A stretch of DNA of 64,000 bases from Candidatus Nomurabacteria bacterium (GTDB taxonomy: Bacteria; Patescibacteriota; Patescibacteriia; HK-STAS-PATE-3). This document shows positions 24,960 through 61,575 of the stretch, one piece after another. The notes beneath the pieces were generated by a model. It was not told the origin of the DNA. It worked only from the letters and a program-made list of their open reading frames with translations, and did not search any database. The stretch covers positions 416,001 through 480,000 of the forward strand of contig CP060223.1 of the NCBI GenBank assembly GCA_023898465.1, read 5' to 3'. The position numbers were made by a program, and so were the translations under genes. How positions within the stretch are numbered: the first letter of the stretch is position 1; each line of letters opens with the position of its first letter.

Positions 24960-27175
<2,216 letters not shown>

Positions 27176-37819: not shown

Positions 37820-37820
37820 A

Positions 37821-38132: not shown

Positions 38133-38158
38133 TAACGAGAATCTGTATCAGCATAGTC

Positions 38159-40366: not shown

Positions 40367-40396
40367 TTGACAATCTAAACTAACGAAGCGTAAGTT
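40367..40396 (+). promoter_or_regulatory. sigma70-like promoter of island 2: -35 TTGACA (40367-40372), 18-nt spacer, -10 TAAGTT (40391-40396)
   Basis: It is followed by RBS GGGAGG (40405-40410) and ATG 40415. Confidence 0.4.
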
Positions 40397-40414
40397 GCGC
40401 GTTTGGGAGGATGC

Positions 40415-40960
40415 ATGAAAACGCTCAGTTTTTTGCTGATGTTGCTTAGCTTTGGCTTGGCAACACCGAGCTTGGCACAGCTCACGCTGCGCCATGGGAC
40501 ACTCATGCCAGGTAATGGTATGAGTGAATCAGCGCAATACCGTCTGGTGAGCGTCATCGGATGGGCTGACCTTAGCCAACATGCCGATACTACTTGGGTA
40601 CTGATCGAAGGGCCGTGGATTCCTCGGAACCATGACACCTCGGCAGTGGGAGGACCTGAAACTCAGGCACACCGCCTAAGCCTCTCGAACATTCAACCCA
40701 ATCCGATTGGTCAATCCGGTCTGATTCACTTCAATGTCCCTGGGATCAATGGAGAGAAATCGCCCCTTACCATGGCAATCTATGACGTCACCGGGCGTCG
40801 AGTACGCACACTGGTCTCAGGCGAGATGCAATCCGGTCCACAGGTTGCTATCTGGGATGGACGAGACGACAGTGGAAAGGCGCTGGCGAATGGCATCTAT
40901 TGGTGCCAAATTCAGTGCAAAAACAACAGGGCAACCAAAAAGCTGGCGGTTATCCGCTAA
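40415..40960 (+). CDS. secreted small protein consisting of signal peptide, short linker and a T9SS-type/FlgD-Ig-like C-terminal sorting domain (island 2)
   Basis: A signal peptide MKTLSFLLMLLSFGLATPSLA. The C-terminal about 90 aa (LSNIQPNPIGQSGLIHFNVPG...LTMAIYDVTGRRVRTLVSGEMQSGPQVAIWDGRDDSGKALANGIYWCQIQCKNNRATKKLAVIR) follows the por-secretion CTD / FlgD_ig pattern (NPF..T.I.F.L......V.L.IYD..GR.VRTL......G.H...WDG.D..G..V.SGVY.Y.L..G....TKKM.L.K). High G+C. Confidence 0.6.
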   Translation: MKTLSFLLMLLSFGLATPSLAQLTLRHGTLMPGNGMSESAQYRLVSVIGWADLSQHADTTWVLIEGPWIPRNHDTSAVGGPETQAHRLSLSNIQPNPIGQSGLIHFNVPGINGEKSPLTMAIYDVTGRRVRTLVSGEMQSGPQVAIWDGRDDSGKALANGIYWCQIQCKNNRATKKLAVIR

Positions 40961-40978
40961 GTAGAAGGAGATGAGATC

Positions 40979-42502: not shown

Positions 42503-42505
42503 GGG

Positions 42506-44284: not shown

Positions 44285-44320
44285 CTTGGAGGGGCTATTC
44301 CAGCATACATCGCACTTTCA

Positions 44321-46230: not shown

Positions 46231-47187
46231 ATGAACTACCTTATTACCGGTTCCGCAGGATTTATTGGATCACACCTCTCCACCACCCTCTTAGCACAAG
46301 GACATCGCGTCATTGGGATTGATGATCTGAATGATTACTATTCTGTTACCCAAAAGCAAGAAAATATAACGCAGCTCAAAGAATTTTCTGAATACTCCTT
46401 TCTTCAATGCGACATTCGTAAACCAGAAGAAATAAAAACATTTCTGCAAAAATATTCACAACCAATTGACGCCATTATTCACCTTGCCGCTCGGGCGGGA
46501 GTGCGGCCTTCAATTGCGAAACCAACCCTTTATACTGATGTAAATGTAAATGGCACTGTGCAAATGCTTGAGCTTGCTCGGGTTTTTCAAATCCCTAAAT
46601 TTATTTTTGCCTCCTCCTCTTCGGTCTACGGTAATCAAGAAAAAACCCCTTTTAGTGAAACAGATGCTGTTGATACACCGATATCACCTTATGCGGCAAC
46701 AAAGCGAGCTGGTGAATTACTTAGCTACACTTATCATGCATTGCACGGCATGAGTGTGGCCTGTCTACGCTTTTTTACCGTATATGGACCAAAAGGACGG
46801 CCGGATATGGCGCCCTACCTCTTCGTTGATAAAGTGCATCGTGGCGAAGCTATTACAAAATTTGGCAACGGAGAAACGCGCCGAGATTACACCTATATTG
46901 AGGATATTATCTCTGGAATTCTCGCAAGTCTACAAGCTGATATTGGTTACGAAATTATTAATCTAGGTAACTCTCATACGATCTCATTAAATGAATTTAT
47001 CGCAACAGTAGAACGAGTAACTGGAAAAACGGCTATTGTTGACCAACAGGGTCCCCAGCCGGGTGATGTGCAACAAACTTTTGCGGATATTACGAAAGCA
47101 AAAAAACTGCTTGGTTACGATCCAAGCACCGCAATCGAAAGCGGTCTCCAACATTTTTATGAATGGTATAAACGTTATCGCGTATGA
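46231..47187 (+). CDS. NAD-dependent nucleotide-sugar epimerase (UDP-glucuronate/UDP-GlcNAc 4-epimerase-like, SDR extended family)
   Basis: 318 aa. Rossmann TGSAGFIGSHL, catalytic YAATKRAGE (YxxxK) and an S(S)SSVYG block. Confidence 0.85.
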   Translation: MNYLITGSAGFIGSHLSTTLLAQGHRVIGIDDLNDYYSVTQKQENITQLKEFSEYSFLQCDIRKPEEIKTFLQKYSQPIDAIIHLAARAGVRPSIAKPTLYTDVNVNGTVQMLELARVFQIPKFIFASSSSVYGNQEKTPFSETDAVDTPISPYAATKRAGELLSYTYHALHGMSVACLRFFTVYGPKGRPDMAPYLFVDKVHRGEAITKFGNGETRRDYTYIEDIISGILASLQADIGYEIINLGNSHTISLNEFIATVERVTGKTAIVDQQGPQPGDVQQTFADITKAKKLLGYDPSTAIESGLQHFYEWYKRYRV

Positions 47188-48146
47188 ATGAAATAACAAC
47201 CACTAAAGCATTTTTTTCAGTCGTCGTACCGGTCTATAACGAAGTCGAGGCTGTGGCTAGTCTTCATGCTGAGATTCTTCAGATCATGCAGACGATGCAA
47301 AAACCTTTTGAGATTATCTTTGTAGACGACGGAAGCAGAGACGGCACATTTGAAAAATTACAATCTCTACATCCGATTACGATTATCCGTTTGCGAAAAA
47401 ACTTTGGACAGACCGCTGCACTGGACGCTGGTTTTAAACATGCTCAAGGGGAAATTATTTTTACCCTGGACGGTGATGGACAAAATGATCCAGCAGACAT
47501 ACCTGGACTTTATGCGAAGATTGAAGAGGGGTATGATGTGGTTTCTGGGTGGAGAAAAAACCGAAAAGACACTTTTTCGAAGCGCTTTTTGTCTCGTGGA
47601 GCAAACTTCCTTCGCGGATTTCTAGTAGCAGATAAAATTAAAGACTCTGGCTGCACGCTCAAAGCATATCGAAGAGAATGCTTCGAGGACTTGGACCTCT
47701 TCGGTGAAATTCATCGTTTCATACCGGCAATTCTAGCGTGGAAAGGTTTCCGCATCGGCGAAATAGTCGTTAATCATCGCGCTCGAACCACTGGCCGAAC
47801 AAAATACAACTGGCGCCGCGTGATAAAAGGTTTTGTCGATATGGTAAGCGTCTGGTTTTGGCGAAAATACTCTAGCCGTCCTCTCCATCTTTTTGGCGGT
47901 CTTGGCATATTGGCTGGAGCCGCTGGTCTCGTCTTAGGACTTTACCTTGCCATTGCTCGACTAATGGGAATTATCTCACTCCAAAACAGCATCTGGCCAT
48001 TGATTTCTGTTTTTCTGATCCTAGCTGGCATCCAATTATTTATTTCTGGACTCCTGGGTGATATTGCTATCAAGACTTACTACAACGGCAAACGGCAAAT
48101 CTACACCATACGTTCAATTACCACATCGCGTAGAGAAAATTCATGA
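47184..48146 (+). CDS. GT2 polyprenyl-phosphate glycosyltransferase (GtrB/ArnC/DPM1-like) with C-terminal TM helices
   Basis: 320 aa. FSVVVPVYNE...IFVDDGSRDGT...DGDGQNDP motifs and two C-terminal TM segments. Confidence 0.8.
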   Translation: MNEITTTKAFFSVVVPVYNEVEAVASLHAEILQIMQTMQKPFEIIFVDDGSRDGTFEKLQSLHPITIIRLRKNFGQTAALDAGFKHAQGEIIFTLDGDGQNDPADIPGLYAKIEEGYDVVSGWRKNRKDTFSKRFLSRGANFLRGFLVADKIKDSGCTLKAYRRECFEDLDLFGEIHRFIPAILAWKGFRIGEIVVNHRARTTGRTKYNWRRVIKGFVDMVSVWFWRKYSSRPLHLFGGLGILAGAAGLVLGLYLAIARLMGIISLQNSIWPLISVFLILAGIQLFISGLLGDIAIKTYYNGKRQIYTIRSITTSRRENS

Positions 48147-49273
48147 GTCGAATACTGTTACTTAATTACGAGTTTCCACCTCTTGGTGGTGGCGCTAGTC
48201 CACTTAGCTACGAGCTAGCTCGAGGATTTGTGCAAAATGGCCATTCAGTCACTGTTGTCACAATGGGCTATAAAACCCTCCCTCGATATGAAGAAAAAGA
48301 CGGTATGCGGATCTTTCGACTCCGTTCAGTTCGAGCAAAAAAAGAGATATGTACGCCATGGGAACAATTCACATTCATCATCTCCGCTTTTTTCTTTTTC
48401 ACAAACCATTTAAAAAAAGAAAAATATGACGTTAATCATACGCATTTTTTAATACCTAGTGGAATTATTTCATGGTGGCTCAAAAAAAAATATCAATTGC
48501 CTTATGTCGTTACCAGTCACGGTAGTGATGTTCCTGGCTTCAACGATGATAGATTTAAGCTTCTTCACAAATTTACCGGCCCAATACTCCGCTTGGTAAG
48601 CAATAATAGTGATAAAATTATTGTTCCCTCAAAATATCTAGGAACCCTCATTGAAAAGAATATTAATTCTGCATTACATAGTAAAATTTATTACATTCCT
48701 AACGGCATAGATGAAAAGAAGTTTGTGCCACAAGAAAAGAAAAAAATCATTCTTTCCACTGGACGATTATTACCAAGAAAAGGTTTTCAGTATTTGATAA
48801 ATGCAATGGCAAAAGAAAACTTGGGATATGAATTACACATTGCTGGTGATGGTCCTATGATGACAGAACTTCAAAAGCTAGCAAGTAACGCAAAAAGTAA
48901 AATAGTTTTTCATGGTTGGCTTGATAATCTTAGCCACGAATACAAAGAACTTCTTGAATCCGCTGCCATTTATAGTTTGGTTTCACCTAAGGAAAACGCA
49001 AGTGTCGCCTTACTTGAGGCGATGAGCGCGGGCTGCGCTATAATCACCAGCAGTTCGGGTGGAGCAGCAGAAACAATGGGTGAGGCCGGTATTACCATAG
49101 AAGCAAAAAACCAAACAAGTATCAATGAAGCGCTGCGTCATCTCACCACCTCCAGTGAAGAGATTCAACGCTTAGGTCAACTTGCCCGCAAACGCGTGCT
49201 TGAAAAATTTAGCTGGACAACTGTATTTCATCAATATAATCAACTATTCACACCTTACGGAGTTAAACTATGA
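48143..49273 (+). CDS. glycosyltransferase family 4
   Basis: 376 aa. GT4 N-domain (MSRILLLNYEFPPLGGGAS) and C-terminal E-x7-E region (SPKENASVALLEAMSAGCAIITS). Confidence 0.8.
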   Translation: MSRILLLNYEFPPLGGGASPLSYELARGFVQNGHSVTVVTMGYKTLPRYEEKDGMRIFRLRSVRAKKEICTPWEQFTFIISAFFFFTNHLKKEKYDVNHTHFLIPSGIISWWLKKKYQLPYVVTSHGSDVPGFNDDRFKLLHKFTGPILRLVSNNSDKIIVPSKYLGTLIEKNINSALHSKIYYIPNGIDEKKFVPQEKKKIILSTGRLLPRKGFQYLINAMAKENLGYELHIAGDGPMMTELQKLASNAKSKIVFHGWLDNLSHEYKELLESAAIYSLVSPKENASVALLEAMSAGCAIITSSSGGAAETMGEAGITIEAKNQTSINEALRHLTTSSEEIQRLGQLARKRVLEKFSWTTVFHQYNQLFTPYGVKL

Positions 49274-50151
49274 AAAAGATAAAACTGCTATTCATCCTTG
49301 CCTGGCGAAATCTGCGTTGGACTTTTATTAAAGCAATTCACCTAAATGGCCAAATATCCGTACAAGTGTATGGAAAGAAAATTGTTCTCTATCTTAATCG
49401 TGTTGGATTAGACATCAAGGAGAATAATATTTTTAAACAGCTCGCTTTAGATCATAATCGCGAAGCTGAGGCCTCTAAGGTAATGCTAGACTTTATCGAG
49501 CCTGGAGACGAAATTTTTGAAGCCGGCGCAAATATTGGCTACTACGTTTTACTTGAAGCGAGTCGACTACAAGGCCAAGGTAAAATTTACGCAATTGAGC
49601 CAGATCCTAGTAACTACGAGCTACTTAAAAAAAATGTGGAGTTAAATGAACTGCAAAATTATGTTGATGTCCGTAAACTATCGGTCAGCGATAAAGTCGG
49701 TCACTCAGAATTTTTCCTAAGTAAGGATTCTAACCTGCACAGCTTCCTTCCGAGCGAAAATGATGAAGAGAGAACCTCAATTATGGTAGAGACAACTACC
49801 ATTGATGCCTTCTTAGCAGATAAACCAAAGGTTAACTTTATCCGAATGGACATAGAAGGCTATGAATGTCGAGTTATTTATGGGATGAAACAATTCCTTG
49901 CTAAGCCTGGCCCTTTAAAACTTTTTATTGAGCTGCATCCAAAGCTGGTTTCAAGGGAAGAAATGTTGAATTTGCTTACCATTTTGGAAGAAAGCGGTTT
50001 CACTATACATAAAGCAATCTCGCGAGATAACTATCTTCGGAAGCAGCTAGGACAAACCACTGTTGAGGAAATGACTATGGCTGAATTAAAGAGCGATCCG
50101 CGCTTGCTGGAAGAAAAACGCTCATTTGAAATGTTTTTCATAAAAAAATAA
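49270..50151 (+). CDS. FkbM-family SAM-dependent methyltransferase
   Basis: 293 aa. EAGANIGYYVLLEAS (SAM-binding glycine-rich motif) and FIRMDIEGYE, typical of the Methyltransf_21/FkbM domain. Confidence 0.7.
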   Translation: MKKIKLLFILAWRNLRWTFIKAIHLNGQISVQVYGKKIVLYLNRVGLDIKENNIFKQLALDHNREAEASKVMLDFIEPGDEIFEAGANIGYYVLLEASRLQGQGKIYAIEPDPSNYELLKKNVELNELQNYVDVRKLSVSDKVGHSEFFLSKDSNLHSFLPSENDEERTSIMVETTTIDAFLADKPKVNFIRMDIEGYECRVIYGMKQFLAKPGPLKLFIELHPKLVSREEMLNLLTILEESGFTIHKAISRDNYLRKQLGQTTVEEMTMAELKSDPRLLEEKRSFEMFFIKK

Positions 50152-50152
50152 C

Positions 50153-51031
50153 ATGACCCAGGATGCTCAAAAACATCCCCTACTCACTGTCTGTATAGTT
50201 CACTACAGAAGGCTTGAGCAGCTCCAAAAAACAATAGATGCTCTTTTTCAAAATACCCGTACTGCATTTCTTCTCCGTGTGTATAACAACGGATACGAGG
50301 ATGATGGAATCAGGGAGTATCTAGATGGTATTAATCAGCGTAGCGATACTACGGTTATCTTTGACACAAAAAATATCGGCTGCTCCCCTGCTCGACACGA
50401 AATTGTAAAAAATATTGAGACACCCTTCATCCTCATGCTTGATGATGACATGTATGTAAATAAAGATTGGGACGTCCCCGTATTTAAAAAATTTGCAGAA
50501 AATCCTACGATTGGCGCTATTGGATTTTCAATTTATAAAATTGATGGGAGCTTCTGGTGGACAGGTGGACGCAATATTATTCTATCAAAAAAAGAAATTA
50601 AAATAGAGCGACCTCATATCGATCCAGAAAAATCAGACCTTGATTTTATAGAGCTTGATGATGTTGCCGCGGGGGCAATGATTTATCGAAAAGAACTTGA
50701 GGATATTATCGTTTGGGACAAGAATTATTTTATCGGCTTTGAGGATCTGGAGAAAGGTCTACATTTAAAACAGAGCAAATATTCCTGTCTCGTCTCAATT
50801 CAAAGTAAATTTATCCACGACAAAATATCTGAGAAACAGGAATACGCTGCTTATAACAATGCACGACGAAATTACCACGCCTACCGGAGAAGTTATCTAC
50901 ATTTTCTAAAGGAAAATAGATATCGTCTTGATTTGAAGCGCCATCTTTTCTACAAATATGTTTGTCTTCTTCCGAATAACATTCTGCAGAAGTTGGTATA
51001 TACTTGGTTAAGCATAAAAAAGAAGGGTTAG
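50153..51031 (+). CDS. GT2-like glycosyltransferase (GT-A fold)
   Basis: 292 aa. LTVCIVHYRR near the N-terminus and a DxD-like MLDDDMYV block. Confidence 0.55.
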   Translation: MTQDAQKHPLLTVCIVHYRRLEQLQKTIDALFQNTRTAFLLRVYNNGYEDDGIREYLDGINQRSDTTVIFDTKNIGCSPARHEIVKNIETPFILMLDDDMYVNKDWDVPVFKKFAENPTIGAIGFSIYKIDGSFWWTGGRNIILSKKEIKIERPHIDPEKSDLDFIELDDVAAGAMIYRKELEDIIVWDKNYFIGFEDLEKGLHLKQSKYSCLVSIQSKFIHDKISEKQEYAAYNNARRNYHAYRRSYLHFLKENRYRLDLKRHLFYKYVCLLPNNILQKLVYTWLSIKKKG

Positions 51032-51032
51032 T

Positions 51033-52823
51033 ATGAAAGAAATTCTACAGAAGCTTCAGGTGATTTTGCCACCAGGTGATAAGAAAAAAATCTTTGGCAT
51101 TTTTGTTTTAATGCTCATTGCAGCGATTTTAGAAGTTATCGGGATTAGTCTAATTCTTGCATTCATTTCAACGGTTTCTAATCCTGATACTCTTTTTCAA
51201 ATCACCTGGCTTGCCCCAATACTACAACGTGCAAATATTACGGATGCAAAAGGCTTACTTACCTACGGGTCGATTCTTCTCATTGTGCTCTTTGTTTTAA
51301 AAAATGCCTATATTATTTCGTTTCAGTATATCCAATCGCATTTCGTTTATCGCAGATTCAGCGCAATATCATCTCGGCTCTTTAATTCATACATGCGGGC
51401 GCCTTATATTTATCACCTTAATAATAATTCAGCTCGCCTTGTGCGTAATGTAACTGGAGAAACCACCTTACTCGTACACTACATCATGCTCCCCTTGCTG
51501 GTGGTGGTCATGGAATCAATCATGATCATTAGTATTAGTATCTTTCTTTTTGCGGTTGAGCCACTCAATACACTCATAGTGCTTTTCTTTGTCGGATCAA
51601 GTGGTATTTTTTTCCTTCGCTTAGTCAAAAAAAAGATTCAACACTTCGGATCTGAATCTCTGATTGAACGAGAAACTATGATTCGTCGCGTGAATGAAGG
51701 TGTTGGTGGTATAAAGGAAATACTCGTAAAGAATCGACAATCTTGGTTTATTAATGCGTTTACTCAATCGATCCATACTTACGCTAAAGCTGAAACATAC
51801 AAAAACATTTTTAAGATGAGCGCCCGGCCCGTTATTGAAACCGTTGCGGTGGCAGGCATGCTTTTAGTCGCCTTAGTACTCGTGTGGCAAGGACGTGGTG
51901 TAGAGTCGATCTTACCAGTACTAAGTCTCTTCGGCGTTGCCACATTTAAACTTATGCCCTCTTTAGATAAGGTTGTGAGTAATAGTAATGTGATTCGTTA
52001 TTACACTTATACGCTAAACTCAATCCATGATGATATTGCTGAGTTGAGTAAAATTGAAACTCCAATACACACAAACTCTGACAATAAAAAGATTTCCATC
52101 TCATCGACCTTAAGTCTTCAAAAGGTATATTTTCGCTACCCAGGCAGTGAGAAACAAGTGCTGCAAGATGTTAGTCTCACTATTCCAAAAGGTGCGGCAA
52201 TCGGATTTGTTGGCCCTTCTGGAGCTGGAAAAAGCACCATAGTGGATATTATCCTCGGACTACTGTCAATTGATTCGGGGCAAATCCTCGTTGATGGAAA
52301 AGATATAAAAAATACTATGGCAGCCTGGCAAAAAAATATCGGCTATATCCCGCAAACTATTTTCCTGGCTGATAATACTATTCGTAATAATATCGCCTTC
52401 GGACTAAACGACAATGAAATTAATGATGCACAGGTTTCTCGTGCTATTAAAATGGCACAGCTAGAAGAGTTCATTGCCTCCCTACCGCAAGGAGTGAACA
52501 CAATGGTTGGTGAACGAGGTGTTCGCTTAAGCGGTGGACAGAGACAGCGCATCGGTATTGCCCGAGCGCTTTATCATGACCCAGAGGTCTTAGTAATGGA
52601 TGAGGCGACATCCTCGCTTGATAATCAAACTGAAAAATATATTATTGATGCAATTGAAAACCTCAAACGGGATAGAACCATTATCATCGTGGCGCATCGT
52701 CTCAGTACAGTAGAGAATTGTGATAACTTGTTTTTCATCGAAAAAGGACACATAAAAGATTCTGGGACTTACTCACATATCATTCAACAAAACAGCGAGT
52801 TACTCGTAAATGAAAAAAGGTAA
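51033..52823 (+). CDS. ABC exporter, fused 6-TM permease plus ATPase (MsbA/PglK-like type I exporter)
   Basis: 596 aa. Six N-terminal TM helices, Walker A GPSGAGKST, signature LSGGQRQRIGIARAL and Walker B LVMDEATS. Confidence 0.85.
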   Translation: MKEILQKLQVILPPGDKKKIFGIFVLMLIAAILEVIGISLILAFISTVSNPDTLFQITWLAPILQRANITDAKGLLTYGSILLIVLFVLKNAYIISFQYIQSHFVYRRFSAISSRLFNSYMRAPYIYHLNNNSARLVRNVTGETTLLVHYIMLPLLVVVMESIMIISISIFLFAVEPLNTLIVLFFVGSSGIFFLRLVKKKIQHFGSESLIERETMIRRVNEGVGGIKEILVKNRQSWFINAFTQSIHTYAKAETYKNIFKMSARPVIETVAVAGMLLVALVLVWQGRGVESILPVLSLFGVATFKLMPSLDKVVSNSNVIRYYTYTLNSIHDDIAELSKIETPIHTNSDNKKISISSTLSLQKVYFRYPGSEKQVLQDVSLTIPKGAAIGFVGPSGAGKSTIVDIILGLLSIDSGQILVDGKDIKNTMAAWQKNIGYIPQTIFLADNTIRNNIAFGLNDNEINDAQVSRAIKMAQLEEFIASLPQGVNTMVGERGVRLSGGQRQRIGIARALYHDPEVLVMDEATSSLDNQTEKYIIDAIENLKRDRTIIIVAHRLSTVENCDNLFFIEKGHIKDSGTYSHIIQQNSELLVNEKR

Positions 52824-52827
52824 GAAT

Positions 52828-53904
52828 ATGAACACATTTAATGAAGAGTTAAATATATCAATAAAAAAGAATTTTCCTAATAATTATCAAGATAATGTTC
52901 TTCAAATACGGTTTAAAAAAAAGAAATTCAAAGTCTGGTTATTAGAAATATTATCGGATTTCACATACAGAATTGGATTGTTCAATCTAATTCTCAAAAG
53001 AAAAAAAATACTAATCGACAGTTTTCATTATCTTTATGATCGACTTAGCGACGACTATTCTAGAGAACTGTTAATACAAGTACTCACGTTCAGATTGTTG
53101 GGAAGTCGTAAAGTAAAGCTCCCGCTAAATGACGGTAACTACTTTAAGAGGATTGAAGACATTGAAAAAAGCGTTGCTAATAAAGACGATTTTCTCTCAC
53201 CAAACTTTTTAGACTGGAAATTATTTTTGTTTGATCTTGAGCAATATGGATATAAGGGAAAAGCATACTCGATAAGCCCAAGCATTTTTAGTAGCTTTGT
53301 ACAGCCGCAATACCAATATAATGGCACACTTATTGCAGCTAAGCCAGGCGACGTTGTTATTGATGCTGGAGCGTGTTGGGGCGAAACGGCTATGTATTTC
53401 GCTGAAAGGGTTAAAGAAAATGGAAAAGTGTACAGTTTTGAATTCCTACCTGAAAACCTCGAGGTAATGAGAAAAAACCTTTCTCTAAACCCAGAATATG
53501 CAAAACAAATTACCATGGTGGAAAAACCCGTATGGTCGAAAAGCAACGAGCCTATAACCTGCAACAACCTTGGTCCAGGAAACAAAGTTATTACTGGTGT
53601 AGATGAAGCATCAACTACTTATCATACAATCTCAATTGATGATTTTGCTGAACAAAATACACTTGAAAACGTTAACTTTATTAAAATGGATATAGAGGGA
53701 TCAGAGCTCGAGGCATTAAAAGGTGCTGAAAATGTAATAAAAAAATTTCGGCCTGTGTTGTCTATTTGCGTCTACCATAAACCAAGTGATTGCAAGCACA
53801 TTCCTGCCTATATTGAAAGCTTAAACTTGGGCTATAAGTTTTATTTTGACCACTATTCAATCTACGGTGAAGAAAGTGTACTCTTTGCGAAAGTCGAAAA
53901 CTAA
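52828..53904 (+). CDS. FkbM-family methyltransferase (second copy)
   Basis: DAGACWGETAMYFAE glycine-rich SAM motif and FIKMDIEGSE. The start is taken at the ATG after the ABC gene stop. Confidence 0.65.
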   Translation: MNTFNEELNISIKKNFPNNYQDNVLQIRFKKKKFKVWLLEILSDFTYRIGLFNLILKRKKILIDSFHYLYDRLSDDYSRELLIQVLTFRLLGSRKVKLPLNDGNYFKRIEDIEKSVANKDDFLSPNFLDWKLFLFDLEQYGYKGKAYSISPSIFSSFVQPQYQYNGTLIAAKPGDVVIDAGACWGETAMYFAERVKENGKVYSFEFLPENLEVMRKNLSLNPEYAKQITMVEKPVWSKSNEPITCNNLGPGNKVITGVDEASTTYHTISIDDFAEQNTLENVNFIKMDIEGSELEALKGAENVIKKFRPVLSICVYHKPSDCKHIPAYIESLNLGYKFYFDHYSIYGEESVLFAKVEN

Positions 53905-53905
53905 T

Positions 53906-55033
53906 ATGCAGAGCTCAAACCAACAACCAATTTATGTAACTAAACCAGCACTCCCGCCACTTGAAGAATTTACTGCTGAGCTAAAAACGATATGGGAGAA
54001 TCGAGTGCTAACAAATAATGGACCATTCCATCAACAATTTGAACTAGCCCTCGCTAAACATCTGGATGTTCCATTTGTATCTGTATTTAGCAATGGAACA
54101 CTTGCTTTGATGACTGCACTGCAATCACTTGATATCCAAGGTGAAGTTATTACTACCCCATTTAGCTTTGTCGCAACAACGCATGCACTTTGGTGGAACA
54201 AAATAACTCCAATATTTGCTGATATTGAATCAACTCATTTTACACTTGATCCTAATAAAACTGAGGAACTTATTACACCTCAAACAAGCGCGATCATGCC
54301 TGTGCACATTTATGGTTACCCATGCAGGACAAAGGAAATCGACATGATAGCAAAAAAGCATAATCTCAAGGTCATTTACGACGCCGCCCACGCCTTTGAT
54401 GTGAAGCAAGATGGTATTTCTGTATTAAATGCTGGCGACCTTTCTGTCCTAAGCTTTCATGCGACGAAAGTTTTTAATACAATTGAGGGTGGTGCGATCA
54501 TTTCCCATAGTGAAGAAATGAAAAATAGGATTGATCACCTAAAAAACTTTGGCTTTGAAGATGAGACAATAATAATTGGTCCCGGCATTAATGCCAAAAT
54601 GAACGAAGTGCAAGCTGCATATGGACTACTTCAACTAAAATATGTTGCTAAATATATAGAAGCCAGAAAAAGAATTGTAGAAAAATATCGTCTAGCACTA
54701 TCTGATATACCTGGCTTGCATTTCTTAGAAGACCAGGAAGGCGTACAAAATAATTACGCCTACTTCCCGATTGTTATTGATACAGAACATTGTATTCATA
54801 CGCGAGATTATATTTATGAGGAATTAAAAAAAGACAATATTTTTTCTCGTAGATATTTTTATCCACTCATAAGTAAAATTCCACTCTACGAAAATCTGGC
54901 GACAACTAAAGCAGCGCAGCTTCCGGTTGCATCTAAAATTAGCGAACAGGTTCTTTGTCTACCCTTATACCATGATTTAAGTGATAGTGATTTTACACGC
55001 ATCATTAGCAGTCTTAAAAGAATGCTTACATAG
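53906..55033 (+). CDS. DegT/DnrJ/EryC1/StrS-family PLP-dependent sugar aminotransferase
   Basis: Start at ATG 53906 (MQSSNQQPIYVTKP). The conserved SFHATK Schiff-base lysine block and the overall fold-type I pattern. Confidence 0.85.
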   Translation: MQSSNQQPIYVTKPALPPLEEFTAELKTIWENRVLTNNGPFHQQFELALAKHLDVPFVSVFSNGTLALMTALQSLDIQGEVITTPFSFVATTHALWWNKITPIFADIESTHFTLDPNKTEELITPQTSAIMPVHIYGYPCRTKEIDMIAKKHNLKVIYDAAHAFDVKQDGISVLNAGDLSVLSFHATKVFNTIEGGAIISHSEEMKNRIDHLKNFGFEDETIIIGPGINAKMNEVQAAYGLLQLKYVAKYIEARKRIVEKYRLALSDIPGLHFLEDQEGVQNNYAYFPIVIDTEHCIHTRDYIYEELKKDNIFSRRYFYPLISKIPLYENLATTKAAQLPVASKISEQVLCLPLYHDLSDSDFTRIISSLKRMLT

Positions 55034-55045
55034 GAATCCATTCAG

Positions 55046-55747
55046 ATGAAAATAGCAATCATGCAGCCCTATTTTTTCCCTTATATCGGATATTTTCAGC
55101 TGATGAATGCTGTAGATGAATTTGTGGTTTACGACAACATTCAATATACCAAGAAGGGGTGGATCAATCGTAACCGTATCCTCCTCAATGGAAAAATTGA
55201 AACTATTTCTCTAGCGATAAAGAAAGATTCTGATTATCTCGATATACGCGACCGTTGCTTAGCTGATAATTGGATAAAGGAACGAAGTAGTATATTAAAC
55301 AGACTCAAATCCTCTTATCAGAAAGCCCCTTACTTCATTCCTACATATACTCTGGTTGAAAAGATACTCAAACAAGATTCGGTCAATCTTTTTGAATTTC
55401 TTTTTAACAGCCTGCAACTCATCAAAGAATATCTCCACATCCCCACCCCTCTTATCATTTCCTCTCAGGTTCCAGTCGACCATACGCTAAAATCAAGCGA
55501 GCGCGTATTGGCTATTTGCAAAGCACTCCAAGCAAATCAATATATTAATCCAATTGGTGGAACAGAATTATATACAAAAGAGCATTTCCTTAAAAATGGC
55601 GTTGCGCTCCAATTTCTCCGAACTCAAGCACATCATTACCAACAGTTTAATAAAGAACATGTACCCTATCTCTCTATTATAGATGTTATGATGTTTAATA
55701 GTCAGGAAGCGCTAAAGGACTTACTCCAAGAATACATTCTCGAATAA
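55046..55747 (+). CDS. WbqC-family protein (uncharacterised glycan-modification family)
   Basis: 233 aa starting MKIAIMQPYFFPYIGYFQLM, the hallmark N-terminus of WbqC-like proteins found in O-antigen/capsule loci. Confidence 0.75.
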   Translation: MKIAIMQPYFFPYIGYFQLMNAVDEFVVYDNIQYTKKGWINRNRILLNGKIETISLAIKKDSDYLDIRDRCLADNWIKERSSILNRLKSSYQKAPYFIPTYTLVEKILKQDSVNLFEFLFNSLQLIKEYLHIPTPLIISSQVPVDHTLKSSERVLAICKALQANQYINPIGGTELYTKEHFLKNGVALQFLRTQAHHYQQFNKEHVPYLSIIDVMMFNSQEALKDLLQEYILE

Positions 55748-55756
55748 TAATCCCAT

Positions 55757-57061
55757 ATGCCCGCTCAAATAGATAAAAAAATTCGCGTACTCCTCTTCCC
55801 GGCTGGCTCAGAAATTGCTTTTGAAATTTATCACTCGCTTCGTCATAACCTCCACGTAGAAATATTTGGAGCTTCGGGAAAGTCTGATCACGCGAGCTAC
55901 TTATATGATTCCGAGCATTACTTCGAGGGTCCATATCAAATCTCCGACGAAAAATTTAATGACCACTTCACCGAGTTATTAAAAGAGCAAAAAATCGATA
56001 TGGTCATGCCAACACATGACTCAGTAACTGAATTTTTGGCAAAACACCGGGATAAATATCCAGCAAAAATTTTGACTTCTCCATACGAAAGCACAAGGAT
56101 AGCTCGACAGAAGATCCTCACCTACGAGCTTTTTCAAGCTTATGATTTCCTGCCAAAGCAGTATTTACCGCCATATCAGAATCTTGAGTATCCTATTTTC
56201 CTCAAGCCAAATCAGGGACAAGGCGGGAAAGGCACTTGTTTAGTTCATACATATGAAGAGCTGCAGGAACAAACCAGTAAGCAACCTGACTTAGTTGCTT
56301 ACGAATATTTACCAGGCGAGGAGCTGAGTGTTGATTGTTTTACCGATCGACATGGCCAGTTGCGTTTTATTGGACCAAGGACTAGAGCAAGAATTGATTT
56401 TGGCATTTCCTTTAGGACAGAGTCTCGTCCGGTCACTCAGGATATTCAGACAATTGCCGAAACAATAAATACAAAGGTTGCTATTCGAGGCGCGTGGTTT
56501 TTTCAAGTAAAAAAAGATAGCACAGGTAAATATAAACTCATGGAATTTGCAGTTCGCCAGGCAAGTACTATGGGTCTTTATCGTCAAATTGGAGTTAATT
56601 TTGCCTTACTCACGATATTCGACGCGCTCGACATCGATGTAAAGATTCTAAAAAATGACTATCCTATCACGCTTGATCGCAGAATGCTAAACCGATATAA
56701 AGCTGATTTCACTTACACAAAAGTATACATTGATTTCGATGATACAATTATCATCAATGAAAAAATTAACATTATCGCACTGCAGTTTCTCTATCAATGT
56801 AAATATGCTCATAAGAAAATTTGTCTTCTCACAAAACATGAGTTCGATCTCGATGAGACATTACAGAAATACTGCCTTGCAAAAAATCTATTTGACGAGA
56901 TTGTGATTTTACATCCTGGAGAGGACAAGACTGATCACATCGTTGCCGACGATGCAATTTTTATTGATAACTACTTTTTTGATAGAGAAAAAGTAAAGCA
57001 GCGTCACAATATTCCTGTATTTGATGTAGACGCCATCGAGAGTTTATTACTTAATACATAA
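55757..57061 (+). CDS. ATP-grasp ligase fused to a C-terminal HAD-like domain
   Basis: An N-terminal about 300 aa ATP-grasp pattern (IFLKPNQGQGGKGTCLV...AYEYLPGEELSVDCF). The C-terminal about 130 aa begins with HAD motif I (VYIDFDDTII). Confidence 0.6.
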   Translation: MPAQIDKKIRVLLFPAGSEIAFEIYHSLRHNLHVEIFGASGKSDHASYLYDSEHYFEGPYQISDEKFNDHFTELLKEQKIDMVMPTHDSVTEFLAKHRDKYPAKILTSPYESTRIARQKILTYELFQAYDFLPKQYLPPYQNLEYPIFLKPNQGQGGKGTCLVHTYEELQEQTSKQPDLVAYEYLPGEELSVDCFTDRHGQLRFIGPRTRARIDFGISFRTESRPVTQDIQTIAETINTKVAIRGAWFFQVKKDSTGKYKLMEFAVRQASTMGLYRQIGVNFALLTIFDALDIDVKILKNDYPITLDRRMLNRYKADFTYTKVYIDFDDTIIINEKINIIALQFLYQCKYAHKKICLLTKHEFDLDETLQKYCLAKNLFDEIVILHPGEDKTDHIVADDAIFIDNYFFDREKVKQRHNIPVFDVDAIESLLLNT

Positions 57062-57064
57062 GGC

Positions 57065-58030
57065 ATGTTCCGCTGGAAGAAACTAGGAAAAGTATTTGAC
57101 CCAACACAAAACGGAAATGATGCGTGGATGCAGACTTTTGCTCAAGCTCCTGCCACTTTAGTTTTTGATTCTTTTGTTCGAGTATATTTTTCTTGTCGGC
57201 CACTTCCGGACAAAAATGGTCAAGCGACAAGCTATGCCGGCTTTGTTGATCTTGATCGAAAAAACCTTTTTAATATTCTTAGGATCTCAAAAAAACCCGT
57301 GCTTCCGCTTGGAGAAATTGGTAGTTTTGACGAGTTTGGTATTATGCCCATCTCAGTCATTCGAGATAAGCATCGATTACTCGCTTACTATGGCGGATGG
57401 ACTCGATGCGTTTCCGTTCCATTCAATATCGCTATTGGTCTGGCTGAAAGTAAGGACAATGGGGAAACTTTTGAAAAAATTGGCCCTGGACCCGTACTCT
57501 CGTATAGCCCTGATGAGCCGTTCTTAGTTGCGGTTCCTAAAATTAGGAAATTTCAAAATCGCTGGTTTCTCTGGTATACCGCCGGGACTCATTGGAGAAA
57601 AGTAAATGGAAAGACTGAGGCGGTTTATGGCATCCGGATGGCTACATCAACTGACGGCGTTACATGGAAAAAAGAGCATCGAAAAATTATTCCAAACGTT
57701 TTAGGTGAGAACGAGGCGCAAGCAAGCGCTGACGTTTATTTTGCTAACGACATCTATCACATGTTTTTTTGCTATCGGCATACTTCTGATTTTCGTACAA
57801 ATAAAGATCGGGCTTATCGGATTGGCTATGCTTACTCTCAGGATGGATTTCATTGGCAGCGTGACGATTCACGGGTAGGCATCGACATATCGACTGAAGG
57901 ATGGGATTCAGAAATGATCTCTTTTCCTCATATTTTTTCACTGGACGGAAAAACCTACATGCTCTACTTGGGAAATAACTTTGGTCGAGAAGGGTTTGGA
58001 ATTGCTGAACTTGAAGGGAGTTTACAATAA
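57065..58030 (+). CDS. five-bladed beta-propeller glycosidase-fold protein (GH43/GH32/GH130-like), tandem paralog 1
   Basis: 321 aa, rich in Trp/Asp/Gly. It starts M-x-W-K-K-L-G-K-V-F-D-P and ends GNNFGREGFGIAEL. It is a clear paralog of the next ORF. Confidence 0.5.
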   Translation: MFRWKKLGKVFDPTQNGNDAWMQTFAQAPATLVFDSFVRVYFSCRPLPDKNGQATSYAGFVDLDRKNLFNILRISKKPVLPLGEIGSFDEFGIMPISVIRDKHRLLAYYGGWTRCVSVPFNIAIGLAESKDNGETFEKIGPGPVLSYSPDEPFLVAVPKIRKFQNRWFLWYTAGTHWRKVNGKTEAVYGIRMATSTDGVTWKKEHRKIIPNVLGENEAQASADVYFANDIYHMFFCYRHTSDFRTNKDRAYRIGYAYSQDGFHWQRDDSRVGIDISTEGWDSEMISFPHIFSLDGKTYMLYLGNNFGREGFGIAELEGSLQ

Positions 58031-58031
58031 T

Positions 58032-58985
58032 ATGCACTGGGAAAAACTCGGAAAAATTTTTGATCCGTCCCAACACAATCTTCCAAACGATTGCAAGCTT
58101 TTCGCGCAATCGCCTCAGGTGTTACTTTTGGACGACCGAATACGGATATATTTTTCTACCCGACAAGCAGATACACCCACAACCTACCTCAGTCATATTG
58201 CTTATGTCGATTTTACAAATGACTTTTCTAAAGTACTTGAAGTCTCAAAAAAAACCGTACTTCCTTTAGGGAAACTTGGCACCTTTGATGAACACGGCAT
58301 CTTTCCAATGAATGTCTTAAGGTTTCAAGATCGAGTACTAGGGTTCACAAGCGGCATTTCTCGTAGATCTTCTGTATCAGTGGAAACATCTATTGGCCTG
58401 GTGGAAAGCTTTGATAACGGAGAAAGCTTTCAGCGAAATAGTGATGGCCCTATCCTTACCTCCTCTCTTCATGAGCCATTTATGGTAGGCGATCCTTTTG
58501 TCCAAGCATACGAAGGAAAACTTCATATGTGGTACATCAACGGAGTACGATGGAAACCAAAAACAGCCCAGGAACCTGCTGCACGAGTATACAAAATTGC
58601 TCATGCAACTTCCTTAGACGCCATACATTGGCAAAATGATAATCGTCAAATTATTAGTGACGTTCTCAATGCCGATGAGTGTCAGGCGCTTCCTACTGTA
58701 ATTAAAATTAAGCAAAGGTACTACATGTACTTTTGCTATCGCGAAGCCAGTGATTTTCGAACAAACAAAAATCGTGCGTATCGAATTGGATGCGCCTATT
58801 CGGATGACCTTACCCATTGGACTCGAGATGATGCCCAAGCTGGTATCACTGTTTCAGACCAGGGCTGGGATTCAGAAATGCAGTGCTACCCTCACGTCTT
58901 TCAAAAAGATGATGTAATATATTTACTTTATAATGGAAACGCCTTCGGCCGCGATGGTTTTGGCTTAGCTAAGCTTGTTGGATAA
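58032..58985 (+). CDS. five-bladed beta-propeller glycosidase-fold protein, tandem paralog 2
   Basis: Starts MHWEKLGKIFDPSQ and ends GNAFGRDGFGLAKL. The conserved internal blocks FRTNK(D/N)RAYRIG(Y/C)AYS.D..HW.RDD and WDSEM..(F/Y)PH(I/V)F are shared with paralog 1. Confidence 0.5.
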   Translation: MHWEKLGKIFDPSQHNLPNDCKLFAQSPQVLLLDDRIRIYFSTRQADTPTTYLSHIAYVDFTNDFSKVLEVSKKTVLPLGKLGTFDEHGIFPMNVLRFQDRVLGFTSGISRRSSVSVETSIGLVESFDNGESFQRNSDGPILTSSLHEPFMVGDPFVQAYEGKLHMWYINGVRWKPKTAQEPAARVYKIAHATSLDAIHWQNDNRQIISDVLNADECQALPTVIKIKQRYYMYFCYREASDFRTNKNRAYRIGCAYSDDLTHWTRDDAQAGITVSDQGWDSEMQCYPHVFQKDDVIYLLYNGNAFGRDGFGLAKLVG

Positions 58986-58990
58986 TACCT

Positions 58991-59938
58991 ATGAATTCTG
59001 ATTCTCCTCTCGTCAGTGTAGTATGCGTCACATACAATCATGGTCCATATATTGCAGAAGCAATAGAAAGTTTTTTACAGCAAGAAACTGACTTCCCTTT
59101 TGAAATTATCATTGGAGAAGACTTCAGTACAGACGAAACCAGGGAAATTTGCTTGGAATATGCAAAAAAGTACCCTGATAAAATCCACCTAGCGATTTCT
59201 GATGGAAATGTCGGGGCACGTAATAATTATTTTCGCGCTTTGTCAGCCGCACGAGGAAAATATATTGCATTTTGTGAAGGAGATGATTACTGGTCGGATC
59301 CAAAAAAGTTGGCAATCCAAATTGGCTACATGGAAAAACATCCAGAGTGCAGTCTCACCTTCCACTCGGTTCGAATTATCAACGGAGATAAAGCAACCAA
59401 TAAGACGATTCGTCCCTTTAACAAAAAAACAATTATTCCAAAAAATACCTTTTTTGGCTACGGCACGATGGCACCATCCCCCACTCTTGTGTATCCCAGA
59501 AAATATATTATAGACCCACCTGATTGGCTTCGTCACTCGCCTGTTGGGGATATACCCTTGAAGCTCTATCTCTCTCAACTTGGTACAGTAGTATATCTGG
59601 ATAAAATCATGGCCATGCGAAGAATTGGCGTCGAGGGTTCGTGGAGTAAACGCATGCAAACTTTTTCATACCGACAAAAACTCTTTCCAGGTATGATTGT
59701 AATGCTTGAAGGTTTTAACGAATTTAGTAAATATATATATGCCTATCAAGTACTAAAAAAACAGCTAAGCTACGAAATTAAAAGTGTGAAAAATCCAATA
59801 ACAAAAGTAAGACAAATGCTAAAACTCATCCGAACAAAATATTCAAAATCGTACTCTTCTCTTTCGCTTACAAAAAAAATGTTTGCAATTGGTAATCTAT
59901 TTATCACAAGCATAGTTGAACAGGTAGCACGTCGTTAG
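58991..59938 (+). CDS. GT2 glycosyltransferase (GT-A)
   Basis: 315 aa. VSVVCVTYNHGPYIAEAIESFL...EIIIGEDFSTDET, and a DxD-like region (CEGDDYW). Confidence 0.8.
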   Translation: MNSDSPLVSVVCVTYNHGPYIAEAIESFLQQETDFPFEIIIGEDFSTDETREICLEYAKKYPDKIHLAISDGNVGARNNYFRALSAARGKYIAFCEGDDYWSDPKKLAIQIGYMEKHPECSLTFHSVRIINGDKATNKTIRPFNKKTIIPKNTFFGYGTMAPSPTLVYPRKYIIDPPDWLRHSPVGDIPLKLYLSQLGTVVYLDKIMAMRRIGVEGSWSKRMQTFSYRQKLFPGMIVMLEGFNEFSKYIYAYQVLKKQLSYEIKSVKNPITKVRQMLKLIRTKYSKSYSSLSLTKKMFAIGNLFITSIVEQVARR

Positions 59939-59940
59939 CC

Positions 59941-60831
59941 ATGGAACCCACTACATATCCAAACAGCCCGGTGTTCTTAATAGGCTCCCCGCGCAGTGGA
60001 AAAACAATACTGCACACCTTACTTGCGCAAGGTAATGACTTCGCCTGGTTTTCCCAATACTCAAGCAAATTTTATACTCATACTTGGCCGGCTTATTTAC
60101 CACGTATATATCAAATTCCATGGCTGGGAAGATATTTACAAAAACATGCTCGTTTACGCATACTCCCCCACCCTGAAGAAATTTCTCACAAGTTTATTCC
60201 AATAATGACTCAGTACGGTTCACTTGAGCAAACTCATGTGAATGAAGCAAATCAAAAAAAACTGCAGCACTGGGTGAGAAAACAAATGCAAGCGCAGAAA
60301 AAAAATCGTATGCTCATTGACTGCGGCCGACCTGCTCGCATATCTTTTTATCACAAAGTCTTTCCTGAGGCAAAATTTATTCACCTTATCAGAGATGGGC
60401 GCGCAGTAGCAGTTGAAATGCTCCGTAGTTACCCTTATATGTTTACTGAAAAAAGTAGTATTGATAGTTATTTTATCCAGACGCCCGAGGAATTTAAAAA
60501 CTACTTACCTAAAAAAAGCGATGATCCATCTCGACCTCTCATTTTAGCCGCCCTGTACTGGAAAATGTCTGTTCGTGAAATTGAGCGGCAAGCCAACCCA
60601 CTTGGAGAGGATGTTTTATCCATCCGATTTGAGGATATTCTCCAAAATCCTACTTCGGAGCTAGAAAAAATCTGTCGCTTTGTGGAATCGGCAAACTCTG
60701 CTAAAATCATCAAGTCTGCTAAGGTTCAGCGATTTCAGTATAAGGATGCCTCCCAGCTCATGGACAAGCAAGGCTACGAGAAATTGACCCATATACTGCA
60801 TGACGAGCTAAAAAACTATGGCTACATTTAA
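59941..60831 (+). CDS. PAPS-dependent sulfotransferase-family protein
   Basis: 296 aa. The 5'-PSB-like P-loop GSPRSGKTILHTLL near the N-terminus and the 3'-PB-like HLIRDGRAVAVEM. Confidence 0.65.
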   Translation: MEPTTYPNSPVFLIGSPRSGKTILHTLLAQGNDFAWFSQYSSKFYTHTWPAYLPRIYQIPWLGRYLQKHARLRILPHPEEISHKFIPIMTQYGSLEQTHVNEANQKKLQHWVRKQMQAQKKNRMLIDCGRPARISFYHKVFPEAKFIHLIRDGRAVAVEMLRSYPYMFTEKSSIDSYFIQTPEEFKNYLPKKSDDPSRPLILAALYWKMSVREIERQANPLGEDVLSIRFEDILQNPTSELEKICRFVESANSAKIIKSAKVQRFQYKDASQLMDKQGYEKLTHILHDELKNYGYI

Positions 60832-60858
60832 CCATTTAGTATTCAGAAAAGTAAGCAT

Positions 60859-61575
60859 ATGATGGATCTCGATATACTTAAGAAACGTGCTGATGATCGC
60901 TGGTTTGTAGTGGATCGATCAAAAGGCAAAAGGGTCTTAGAAATCGGTTGCGTAAACCATACTATTGAAGGAATTGAGGAGCAGCGCAGGATTGGCACTT
61001 GGCTTTTTGATTATCTCCACGTGTATGGAACTCATGCTACTGGTATTGATATTGACCAACCAGCAATTGACCATTTAGCCAAACAGGGCTACGACATCCG
61101 GTATGGAGATGGGCAAGATTTTAATCTGAACGAAGAGTTTGAAGTTATTATTGCATCAAAAGTAATTGATCATCTTACCAATATTGATGGTTTCCTAAAA
61201 AGCTGTAAAAAGCATCTCTCTCCCGACGGTAAACTCATTATCACTGATGACAACATTCTCTGCGTTCCTCAGCTCCTGACATGGTATGCAAAGAAAAATG
61301 TTGGACATCCTGACGATGATATAACTGTAAAAATTATTCCGGAGTACTTCCGCCTCTTTGTGAGGCGCTATGGCTTTGAGGTCGAAGAAATACATTATGT
61401 AGTTGGCACAGGAAATTCTTTTCTCTTCAAGCTGTTCCGTTTCATAAAAAAAATAATGCCAAAGCGCCTAGTACATGAACCGCTTTTTTATCCAAACTAC
61501 ATCATTCAATTACGTCATCGTACGAATGAAGAGAGCGAGAAGGGTGCTACTGCACATCACTCGCATCAGCACTAG
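60859..61575 (+). CDS. class I SAM-dependent methyltransferase
   Basis: 238 aa. VLEIGCVNH (motif I, G-x-G-like), then acidic motif II (DIR), then VIIASKVIDHL (motif III). Confidence 0.6.
   Translation: MMDLDILKKRADDRWFVVDRSKGKRVLEIGCVNHTIEGIEEQRRIGTWLFDYLHVYGTHATGIDIDQPAIDHLAKQGYDIRYGDGQDFNLNEEFEVIIASKVIDHLTNIDGFLKSCKKHLSPDGKLIITDDNILCVPQLLTWYAKKNVGHPDDDITVKIIPEYFRLFVRRYGFEVEEIHYVVGTGNSFLFKLFRFIKKIMPKRLVHEPLFYPNYIIQLRHRTNEESEKGATAHHSHQH

Follow-up and report, generated by a model that had tools for sequence, protein, structure and literature searches.

A sulfotransferase-fold enzyme with a non-canonical, recurrently evolved active-site state in a glycan gene cluster of a Candidatus Nomurabacteria bacterium

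To our knowledge, dependence on 3'-phosphoadenosine 5'-phosphosulfate (PAPS), bound by a 5'-phosphosulfate-binding (5'-PSB) and a 3'-phosphate-binding (3'-PB) motif, is treated as universal for the sulfotransferase fold. A gene of a Candidatus Nomurabacteria bacterium, located at positions 59941-60831 of the 64-kb stretch of contig CP060223.1 analysed here (64,000 nucleotides, hereafter called the window), raises the question of whether this holds for every branch of the family. A previous inspection of the letters and open reading frames (ORFs) of the window (hereafter, the sequence-only reading) had proposed that the gene is a sulfotransferase gene inside a glycan cluster, on account of two motifs that resemble the PAPS-contacting elements of carbohydrate and cytosolic sulfotransferases. 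The analysis reported here, in which all the evidence is computational, agrees with this assignment, and points to an active site that differs from the norm of the family at three coupled positions.

The gene is an intact ORF from ATG to stop, and the same protein is predicted by independent gene calls on two public contigs. An identical protein is present in GenBank (USN53985.1), where it is annotated as "MAG: sulfotransferase [Candidatus Nomurabacteria bacterium]" (MAG, metagenome-assembled genome). No N-terminal hydrophobic segment was found in its 296 amino acids (aa). Both motifs were located, GSPRSGKTIL at residues 15-24 (nt 59983-60012) and R-D-G-R at residues 151-154 (nt 60391-60402). 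The Pfam search that had been recommended gave two matches above the gathering cutoff, namely Sulfotransfer_3 (PF13469, E=1.3e-18, 68.5 bits against a cutoff of 27) and Sulfotransfer_1 (PF00685, 35.6 bits against 22), and no match to the beta-propeller of the arylsulfate sulfotransferases (ASST). A profile of the query and 37 homologues matched TPST1 over nearly its full length (E=3.8e-32), and the AlphaFold2 model built on the 38-sequence alignment (pLDDT 87.3, pTM 0.87) shows the alpha/beta fold of sulfotransferases, its top Foldseek matches being the CurM sulfotransferase domain, Stf9 and the TPSTs. P-loop nucleotide kinases, or any other P-loop family outside the sulfotransferases, which the sequence-only reading had named as the outcome that would overturn it, were not the closest match by Pfam, by the TPST1 profile or by Foldseek. 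Membership in the Nod-factor sulfotransferases NodH/NoeE was considered and rejected, as the sole NCBIfam match, NoeE (NF052394), scored 21 bits against a cutoff of 500. The suggested kinship with carbohydrate and cytosolic sulfotransferases stands as regards the family, but not as regards carbohydrates: the nearest structural relatives act on protein tyrosine and polyketides, and we infer a glycan substrate from the gene context only. The family assignment is right and, being already in GenBank, is at face value an ordinary finding. What can be added to it is the active-site state, which is non-canonical and appears to have evolved recurrently.

In the 38-sequence alignment, the family consensus reads PRSGTT ... 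hhhK ... RDGRAVxxS, whereas the query and its nearest relatives read PRSGKT ... hhhD ... RDGRAVxxE. Column statistics were obtained from 190 relatives and TPST1, aligned with MAFFT L-INS-i. The three columns concerned (21, 127 and 159 in query numbering) all lie in ungapped blocks flanked by conserved anchors, the block of column 127 being bounded by K121 and R133. At position 21, where TPST1 has Thr and the query Lys, the 190 relatives have Thr in 138 cases, Ser in 29 and Lys in 11; at position 127 (TPST1 Lys, query Asp) they have Lys in 166 cases, Asp in 10 and Glu in 4; and at position 159 (TPST1 Ser, query Glu) they have Ser in 178 cases, Glu in 8 and Asp in 2. Other catalytic and binding residues are retained in the query, namely R18, S19, G20, T22, R151-D-G-R154, W207, E231 and E80. 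R18 is conserved in 178 of the 190 relatives, G20 in 184, and R151 is Arg in 189 of them as well as in TPST1. In a larger comparison, position 80 is Glu in 264 of 299 relatives and position 78 is Pro in 250 of 299, and both residues are invariant across a 12-member alignment of variant sequences. It should be noted that the confidence of the model is low around E80 (pLDDT 59-66), and that E80 is not aligned with the catalytic Glu of the TPSTs (Glu99 in TPST2) by MAFFT, owing to an insertion of about 40 residues in the query between helix 1 and the P78-x-E80 segment.

What these positions may do was taken from the tick TPST. In the profile alignment with this enzyme (chain numbering), its Arg74 falls in the R18 column, Thr77 in that of K21 and Lys154 in that of D127, while the segment RDGRAVvaS of the family profile is aligned to RDGRASVHS of TPST1. 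In the tick enzyme, Arg74 is the general acid, and Lys154, which matches Lys158 of human TPST2, stabilizes the transition state through neutralization of the charge on the sulfate being transferred, its Ala mutant showing little or no activity; the 3'-PB motif is located on the strand and helix carrying RDGR...S (PMC10951654). The query has the 5'-PSB loop with its catalytic Arg (P-R/K-S-G-T/S-T/S), except for the Lys at position 21, and R151 provides the arginine of the 3'-PB motif. It lacks the 3'-phosphate-binding Ser eight residues after R151, which is replaced by Glu159, and the transition-state lysine at the end of the P-loop-adjacent strand (residues 123-128 in the AlphaFold2 model), which is replaced by Asp127. 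Thus, among the PAPS-contacting Lys, Arg and Ser residues on which the sequence-only reading had made its assignment depend, both arginines are in place, whereas lysine and serine have been replaced. Likewise, the P-loop-like GKT to which it had drawn attention is present, but is an unusual state in a family whose norm is G-T/S-T. As judged from these alignments, the active site is non-canonical for a PAPS enzyme.

The three substitutions do not vary independently. In a set of 300 sequences, composed of the relatives and of the matches of a profile search with the variant sequences, Lys at position 21 was found in 27; 26 of these have Asp or Glu at position 127, and 24 have Glu or Asp at position 159, the exceptions being Ala159 in P0002, Ser159 in P0054 and a K-Q-S state (residues at positions 21, 127 and 159) in P0241. 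Conversely, neither K21 nor an acidic residue 159 occurs in any of the 247 sequences of the set that have K127. An acidic residue 159 outside the background of K21 with D/E127 was found neither among the 300 relatives nor among 127 sulfotransferase ORFs in 91 loci. The coupling of the substitutions at positions 21, 127 and 159 appears solid on this sequence evidence. The C-terminal N-x-[KR]-W motif was considered as a fourth covarying site and discarded, as the states show no consistent difference there. Other minor states are present in the family, such as L/V-E-S (8 sequences) and V-T-S (7), and the column of the "catalytic" lysine is more variable family-wide than work on the TPSTs suggests.

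The variant sequences fall into three groups, each with its own motif: group A (8 members including the query, D-x-G-R-P-x-R), group B (3 members, D-Q-S-x-N-x-Q-R) and group C (15 members, one of them from Alkalibacterium, E-Y-S-K-W). Groups B and C each share a lineage-specific indel with their canonical neighbours, respectively a longer Q[ST]ANxQR loop and an insertion after the 3'-PB helix. A neighbour-joining bootstrap analysis of 100 taxa and 278 columns, in which columns 21, 127 and 159 were masked, recovered a clade of all variants in none of its 300 replicates, nor did any replicate unite two of the variant groups. Each group was instead nested with non-variant sequences, to the exclusion of the other variant groups, in 72% (A), 97% (B) and 100% (C) of the replicates. 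The triple swap appears to have arisen at least three times independently, a result of sequence comparison that we consider solid, and a single origin is unsupported. Because the variant recurs and is conserved, it is better seen as a functional alternative state than as decay. Its members come from organisms as different as a bacterium of the candidate phyla radiation (CPR), an Archaeoglobaceae archaeon (GCA_027016055.1) and Alkalibacterium (sp. s-m-22, WP_459771097.1). In addition, the group C protein P0221 is encoded on a contig from soda-lake sediment (L007/L008), together with an RLI/ABCE1-type ABC protein and an Lhr-type helicase with a TrmB-like domain, and this contig is probably archaeal. 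Considering this contig and the Archaeoglobaceae match (L012), the variant crosses the divide between bacteria and archaea.

The genomic context of the gene is that of glycan biosynthesis, as previously proposed. The gene belongs to a co-directional cluster (46231-61575) which, according to Pfam, encodes in total an epimerase/dehydratase, three family 2 glycosyltransferases (GT2), one family 4 glycosyltransferase (GT4), two FkbM methyltransferases, an ABC exporter, a DegT aminotransferase, WbqC, an ATP-grasp protein, two GH130-like proteins and a class I methyltransferase dependent on S-adenosylmethionine (SAM) (Table 1). The GC content of the cluster is 0.37-0.40, compared with about 0.43-0.45 in most of the window. 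The stop codon of the upstream GT2 gene lies 2 nt before the start of the sulfotransferase gene, and the methyltransferase gene starts 27 nt downstream of it. The nearest homologues of the enzyme are only 34-40% identical to it, yet the neighbours are kept. Homologue P0003 has, directly upstream, a GT2 that shares 51% identity with the one in the window, and P0056 has an upstream one that shares 32%, while a partial ORF downstream of P0056 is 50% identical to the methyltransferase of the window over 134 aa (E=1e-48). By sequence comparison, GT2, sulfotransferase-fold enzyme and methyltransferase form a conserved module, which suggests that the module tailors the sugar added by the GT2. Other variant members are also found among glycan genes: P0004 in a Wzx/Wzy/GT4/DegT cluster of the MAG of the Archaeoglobaceae archaeon, P0214 and P0206 in clusters with GT4, UDP-glucose dehydrogenase, Wzy and Wzx, and P0221 next to a Wzx-like gene on its archaeal-looking contig.

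Table 1. Features of the sulfotransferase-fold gene and of the surrounding glycan cluster (positions in the window; TMD-NBD, transmembrane and nucleotide-binding domains).
Feature	Position	Strand	Remarks
Cluster remainder, in order: epimerase/dehydratase, GT2, GT4, FkbM, GT2, ABC exporter, FkbM, DegT, WbqC, ATP-grasp, two GH130-like	46231..58985	+	Pfam
Fused TMD-NBD ABC exporter	51033-52823	+	Pfam
GT2 glycosyltransferase, upstream partner	58991..59938	+	PF00535, 91 bits
Sulfotransferase-fold enzyme USN53985.1	59941..60831	+	296 aa, soluble, P-loop from residue 15
5'-PSB loop G15-S-P-R18-S19-G20-K21-T22	59983..60006	+	exact Walker A GxxxxGK[ST]
P78-E79-E80, E80 candidate catalytic base	60172..60180	+	family-wide conserved Glu
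Strand R123-M-L-I-D127, then C128-G-R130-P-A-R133	60307..60339	+	Walker-B-like hhhhD
3'-PB strand-turn-helix F146-IHLI-R151-D-G-R154-AVAV-E159	60376..60417	+	R151 kept, E159 replaces Ser
Class I SAM-dependent methyltransferase, downstream partner	60859..61575	+	Pfam Methyltransf_23/11/12

The sequence-only reading had seen no PAPS-synthesis genes in the window and had asked where the cofactor would come from. The window was searched with Pfam (62 ORFs of at least 90 aa) and by tblastn with CysC and CysD probes. None of the 62 ORFs of the 64-kb window matched APS_kinase, ATP-sulfurylase, PAPS_reduct/CysD/N or a CysQ-type PAP phosphatase. The CysC and CysD probes found no match in the window either, while the same probes found candidate kinases of adenosine 5'-phosphosulfate (APS) at eight other loci, at one of which (L014) the neighbour was confirmed as an APS kinase by Pfam. 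The question is real, and sharper than when it was first posed. At L014, a Melioribacteraceae homologue (MAG WGCV01000054.1, 9456-10897) in the K-Q-S state, which keeps Ser159 and whose P-loop reads NRAGKE, abuts the APS kinase (PF01583, 163 bits), which ends where the homologue begins. A P-loop lysine without K127 seems therefore compatible with a PAPS-linked function. The states TCS, TYS, TNS and TSS also occur next to cysC. A literature search brought up no work on CPR/Patescibacteria that deals with sulfotransferases or PAPS synthesis, nor any on an APS- or ATP-using enzyme of the sulfotransferase fold; the "PAPS-independent sulfotransferase" of the literature refers to unrelated arylsulfate enzymes.

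The explanation that we favour, and that we hold with middling confidence, is that the variant would be a sulfotransferase that tailors a glycan, its catalytic lysine having been relocated and its handling of the 3'-phosphate altered. The enzyme would be cytoplasmic and would act as the middle member of the module of the surface-glycan cluster. It would sulfate the sugar that the neighbouring GT2 has put on, at a stage when the glycan is attached to its lipid on the cytoplasmic face; export through the ABC exporter of the cluster would follow. Sulfate would be transferred in-line from a donor of the adenosine 5'-phosphosulfate type held in the P-loop, with R18 as the general acid and E80 as the probable base. 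The transition-state lysine appears to have left the strand end, where Asp127 now stands, for the P-loop, in which it is Lys21; there, anchored by Asp127, it may stabilize the charge of the leaving sulfuryl group. As for the altered 3'-phosphate pocket, it may require a divalent metal for PAPS to bind, or APS may be preferred; the change in net charge at the three sites (-2 relative to canonical enzymes) is what would be expected if the ligand had lost its dianionic 3'-phosphate or if a divalent cation had been recruited. The bolder proposal that the whole K21/D-E127/E-D159 class no longer recognizes the 3'-phosphate of PAPS, and uses APS or Mg-ATP, is a tentative one, and we are inclined to doubt it.

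Several points weigh against the rewired sulfotransferase. The lysine lost here (tick Lys154, TPST2 Lys158) is required for TPST activity (PMC10951654). A carboxylate at the Ser position of the 3'-PB motif should repel the 3'-phosphate, and a net charge lower by 2 than in canonical enzymes would be unfavourable for the tetra-anionic PAPS unless a metal is bound. The homologue at L014 is an imperfect control, because its loop reads GKE and not GKT. PAPS genes were found near none of the five distinct variant contexts (window, +/-10 kb), compared with 8 of about 79 other loci, which is too few for significance; similarly, Ser159 is kept in all eight homologues near APS-kinase/CysD genes, numbers that are too small for a test. 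Finally, the tree is a simple neighbour-joining one, in which the nesting of group A reached only 72%. The covariation and the recurrence are solid computational results; what the swap means for function is a proposal.

An alternative that we judge unlikely is that the enzyme is an ordinary PAPS-dependent carbohydrate sulfotransferase, in which the substitutions compensate each other, leaving donor and mechanism as they are, and PAPS comes from genes elsewhere in the 1.08 Mb genome or from the host. Such an enzyme would agree with the robust family assignment, with the GenBank annotation and with the retention of R18, R151 and E80. It would also agree with the occurrence of a non-lysine residue at position 127 in several other branches, some of them APS-kinase-linked (the four states next to cysC mentioned above), and with the K-Q-S homologue abutting an APS kinase. 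Position 159 is where this explanation meets its difficulties: neutrality hardly accounts for the confinement of the acidic residue to the K21 and D/E127 background, the charge of a carboxylate in the 3'-phosphate site works against PAPS, and none of the eight PAPS-linked homologues has an acidic residue there.

The other alternative, a reversion to a kinase-like enzyme that would transfer phosphate from Mg-ATP (or ADP) to the glycan, to be possibly methylated by the downstream methyltransferase as in WbdD, is also one to which we give little credence. As in the P-loop nucleoside monophosphate (NMP) kinases (uridylate, adenylate, gluconate and APS kinases), the query has an exact Walker A motif, G15-xxxx-G20-K21-T22; its candidate counterpart of their hhhhD strand is the hydrophobic one with Asp127 at its end. 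When aligned with hhalign to adenylate kinase, K21 falls in register with Lys13 of that enzyme, but the alignment covers only 19 P-loop columns, with a probability of 15.7%. RMLID127 would fit the acid of the kinase Mg2+ site by sequence and strand order, the hhalign alignment being confined to the P-loop. The order of the strands in the model (beta1 with the P-loop, insert, beta3 ending in D127, beta4-helix) parallels that of the NMP kinases, the topology of adenylate kinase being used for the comparison. An acidic residue at the 3'-phosphate site is what would be expected for a nucleotide with a free 3'-OH. The repeated origin of the K/D/E triple, the conservation of the methyltransferase partner and the absence of PAPS genes from the window are likewise in line with a kinase, and a need for PAPS would vanish in a reduced genome. 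On the other hand, there is no Pfam kinase match, the fold match to kinases is far weaker than that to sulfotransferases, and the ATP gamma-phosphate would presumably sit one phosphate beyond the position of the PAPS sulfate. Moreover, the variant keeps Arg151 with the whole RDGR motif, and the sulfotransferase-typical PSB Arg18. Because R151 and the PRSG arginine are kept, and because the sulfotransferase fold match is much stronger, the rewired sulfotransferase is favoured over the kinase.

The likeness to WbdD of E. coli O9a is conceptual only: a group-transferase and a SAM-dependent methyltransferase form a pair in a glycan cluster with an ABC exporter. WbdD caps O-antigen chains, and its kinase has a eukaryotic-like kinase fold. 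The exporter of the window cluster is a fused TMD-NBD protein, not Wzm/Wzt. A homology of the downstream methyltransferase to that of WbdD was looked for and rejected. The sequence search of PDB gave no match at E<=0.01, and the best match at E<=10 was the unrelated methyltransferase ToxA, WbdD being absent, so that the methyltransferase is without detectable similarity to WbdD or any solved structure, a further point against the kinase.

That the protein is an inactive relic, or a non-enzymatic nucleotide- or glycan-binding subunit of the tailoring module, as the loss of the equivalents of Lys127 and Ser159, important in characterized relatives, could suggest, is very improbable. The triple state recurs in at least three lineages, in each of which it has been kept by sequences that are 25-40% identical, and R18, G20, RDGR, W207 and E80 are invariant. 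Moreover, the gene has an intact ORF with tight coupling to those on either side, and distant genomes show it at the same place in the module.

The query was compared with the closest characterized sulfotransferases. The TPSTs (human TPST1 and TPST2, and tick TPST; PDB 5wri, 3ap3, 8w5z) have in common with the query the PRSG Arg, the RDGR motif and the later Trp and Glu; however, their identity to it is only 17-19%, their residues in the three key columns are Thr, Lys and Ser, not the Lys21, Asp127 and Glu159 of the query, and they lack the insertion of about 40 residues before P78-x-E80. In addition, the TPSTs are type II membrane proteins of the Golgi acting on peptides, while the query is a soluble bacterial protein encoded in a glycan cluster. 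The best single-sequence match in PDB is to the sulfotransferase domains of CurM and of the Synechococcus olefin synthase (PDB 4gbm, 4gox; E=2.5e-6), with an alignment covering SPRSG, LLID and W-x-x-S. These domains, which are part of polyketide synthases and sulfate a beta-hydroxyl to activate decarboxylation, have the canonical S-K-S state (SPRSGST, LIDK, RHPYAVIES), unlike the query. The mycobacterial Stf9 and Stf1, and the heparan-sulfate N- and 3-O-sulfotransferases (PDB 2z6v, 2zq5, 1nst, 3bd9), are only 10-14% identical to the query, and this analysis gave no evidence of a substrate specificity shared with them. NodH and NoeE are bacterial sulfotransferases that decorate glycans, as is proposed for the query, which is not a member of their family. 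Rhizobia encode a dedicated PAPS synthesis, NodPQ, of which no counterpart was seen in the 64-kb window.

The searches yielded roughly 2500 relatives, among them some very long ones, P0075 (1298 aa) and P0175 (1238 aa); the former matches the query in nine separate stretches, which suggests tandem sulfotransferase domains or a multidomain synthase.

The remainder of the window deserves a brief description. Its genes fit a CPR genome: those for glycans are many, those for metabolism few, and a type IV pilus cluster is present. The pilus set (3582-13332) looks complete and includes a PilB-like ATPase, PilC, PilM, PilN, PilO and two prepilin-like N_methyl proteins, one of 735 aa; such a set is typical of episymbiotic CPR bacteria. 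Large polytopic glycosyltransferases resembling PMT_2/ArnT are encoded at 1698-3500, 28869-30476 and 61547-63958, and by one more gene just past the window end (L001 14120-16072); their abundance suggests that much glycosylation takes place in the periplasm or otherwise outside the cytoplasm, from donors linked to lipids. Inside the biosynthetic cluster, two tandem paralogous GH130-like beta-propeller proteins (57065-58985; 321 aa and about 317-334 aa), with GH130 scores at or below threshold, adjoin the ATP-grasp (55757-57061), WbqC and DegT genes, and may be glycoside-phosphorylase-like transferases rather than hydrolases. At 24960-27175, S-adenosylhomocysteine hydrolase adjoins a PfkB-family (adenosine-kinase-like) kinase; this is a salvage pair of the SAM cycle, which fits the four methyltransferases of the glycan cluster. 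Apparent gene fragments are found at 36685-40010, namely a GT4 reduced to its C-terminal half (219 aa), a GT2 truncated at the N-terminus (175 aa) and two pieces (167 and 126 aa) of a Wzx-type flippase (Polysacc_synt); the region looks like a decaying older glycan locus or the result of frameshift errors. It is followed by a GC-rich island (40001-44300; 0.52-0.53, against the values given above for most of the window), with a small FlgD_ig/Por_Secre_tail protein (40403-40960), an M23 peptidase of 592 aa (42506-44284) and, between them, a protein of 507 aa to which Pfam gave no match (40979-42502). This island may be acquired DNA, because a sorting domain of the type IX secretion system (T9SS) type is unexpected in a CPR genome.

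A variant that lacks the Ser of the 3'-phosphate site and the transition-state Lys, has a Walker A Lys, and appears to have originated at least three times would represent a natural experiment in active-site rewiring, which could amount to a change of donor. The three-residue signature also flags those "sulfotransferase" annotations whose chemistry should not be assumed. If APS were the donor, the result would be a route of sulfation independent of PAPS and of APS kinase, and the use of either APS or Mg-ATP would explain anionic groups on surface glycans in organisms with a minimal or unusual sulfur metabolism. The life of CPR bacteria is one of attachment to host cells, with next to no capacity for biosynthesis. 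For such organisms, a dedicated module composed of a GT2, a transferase of an anionic group and a methyltransferase that acts on a surface glycan is a plausible determinant of cell-cell contact, and the source of activated sulfate is a concrete question about their metabolic dependence on the host.

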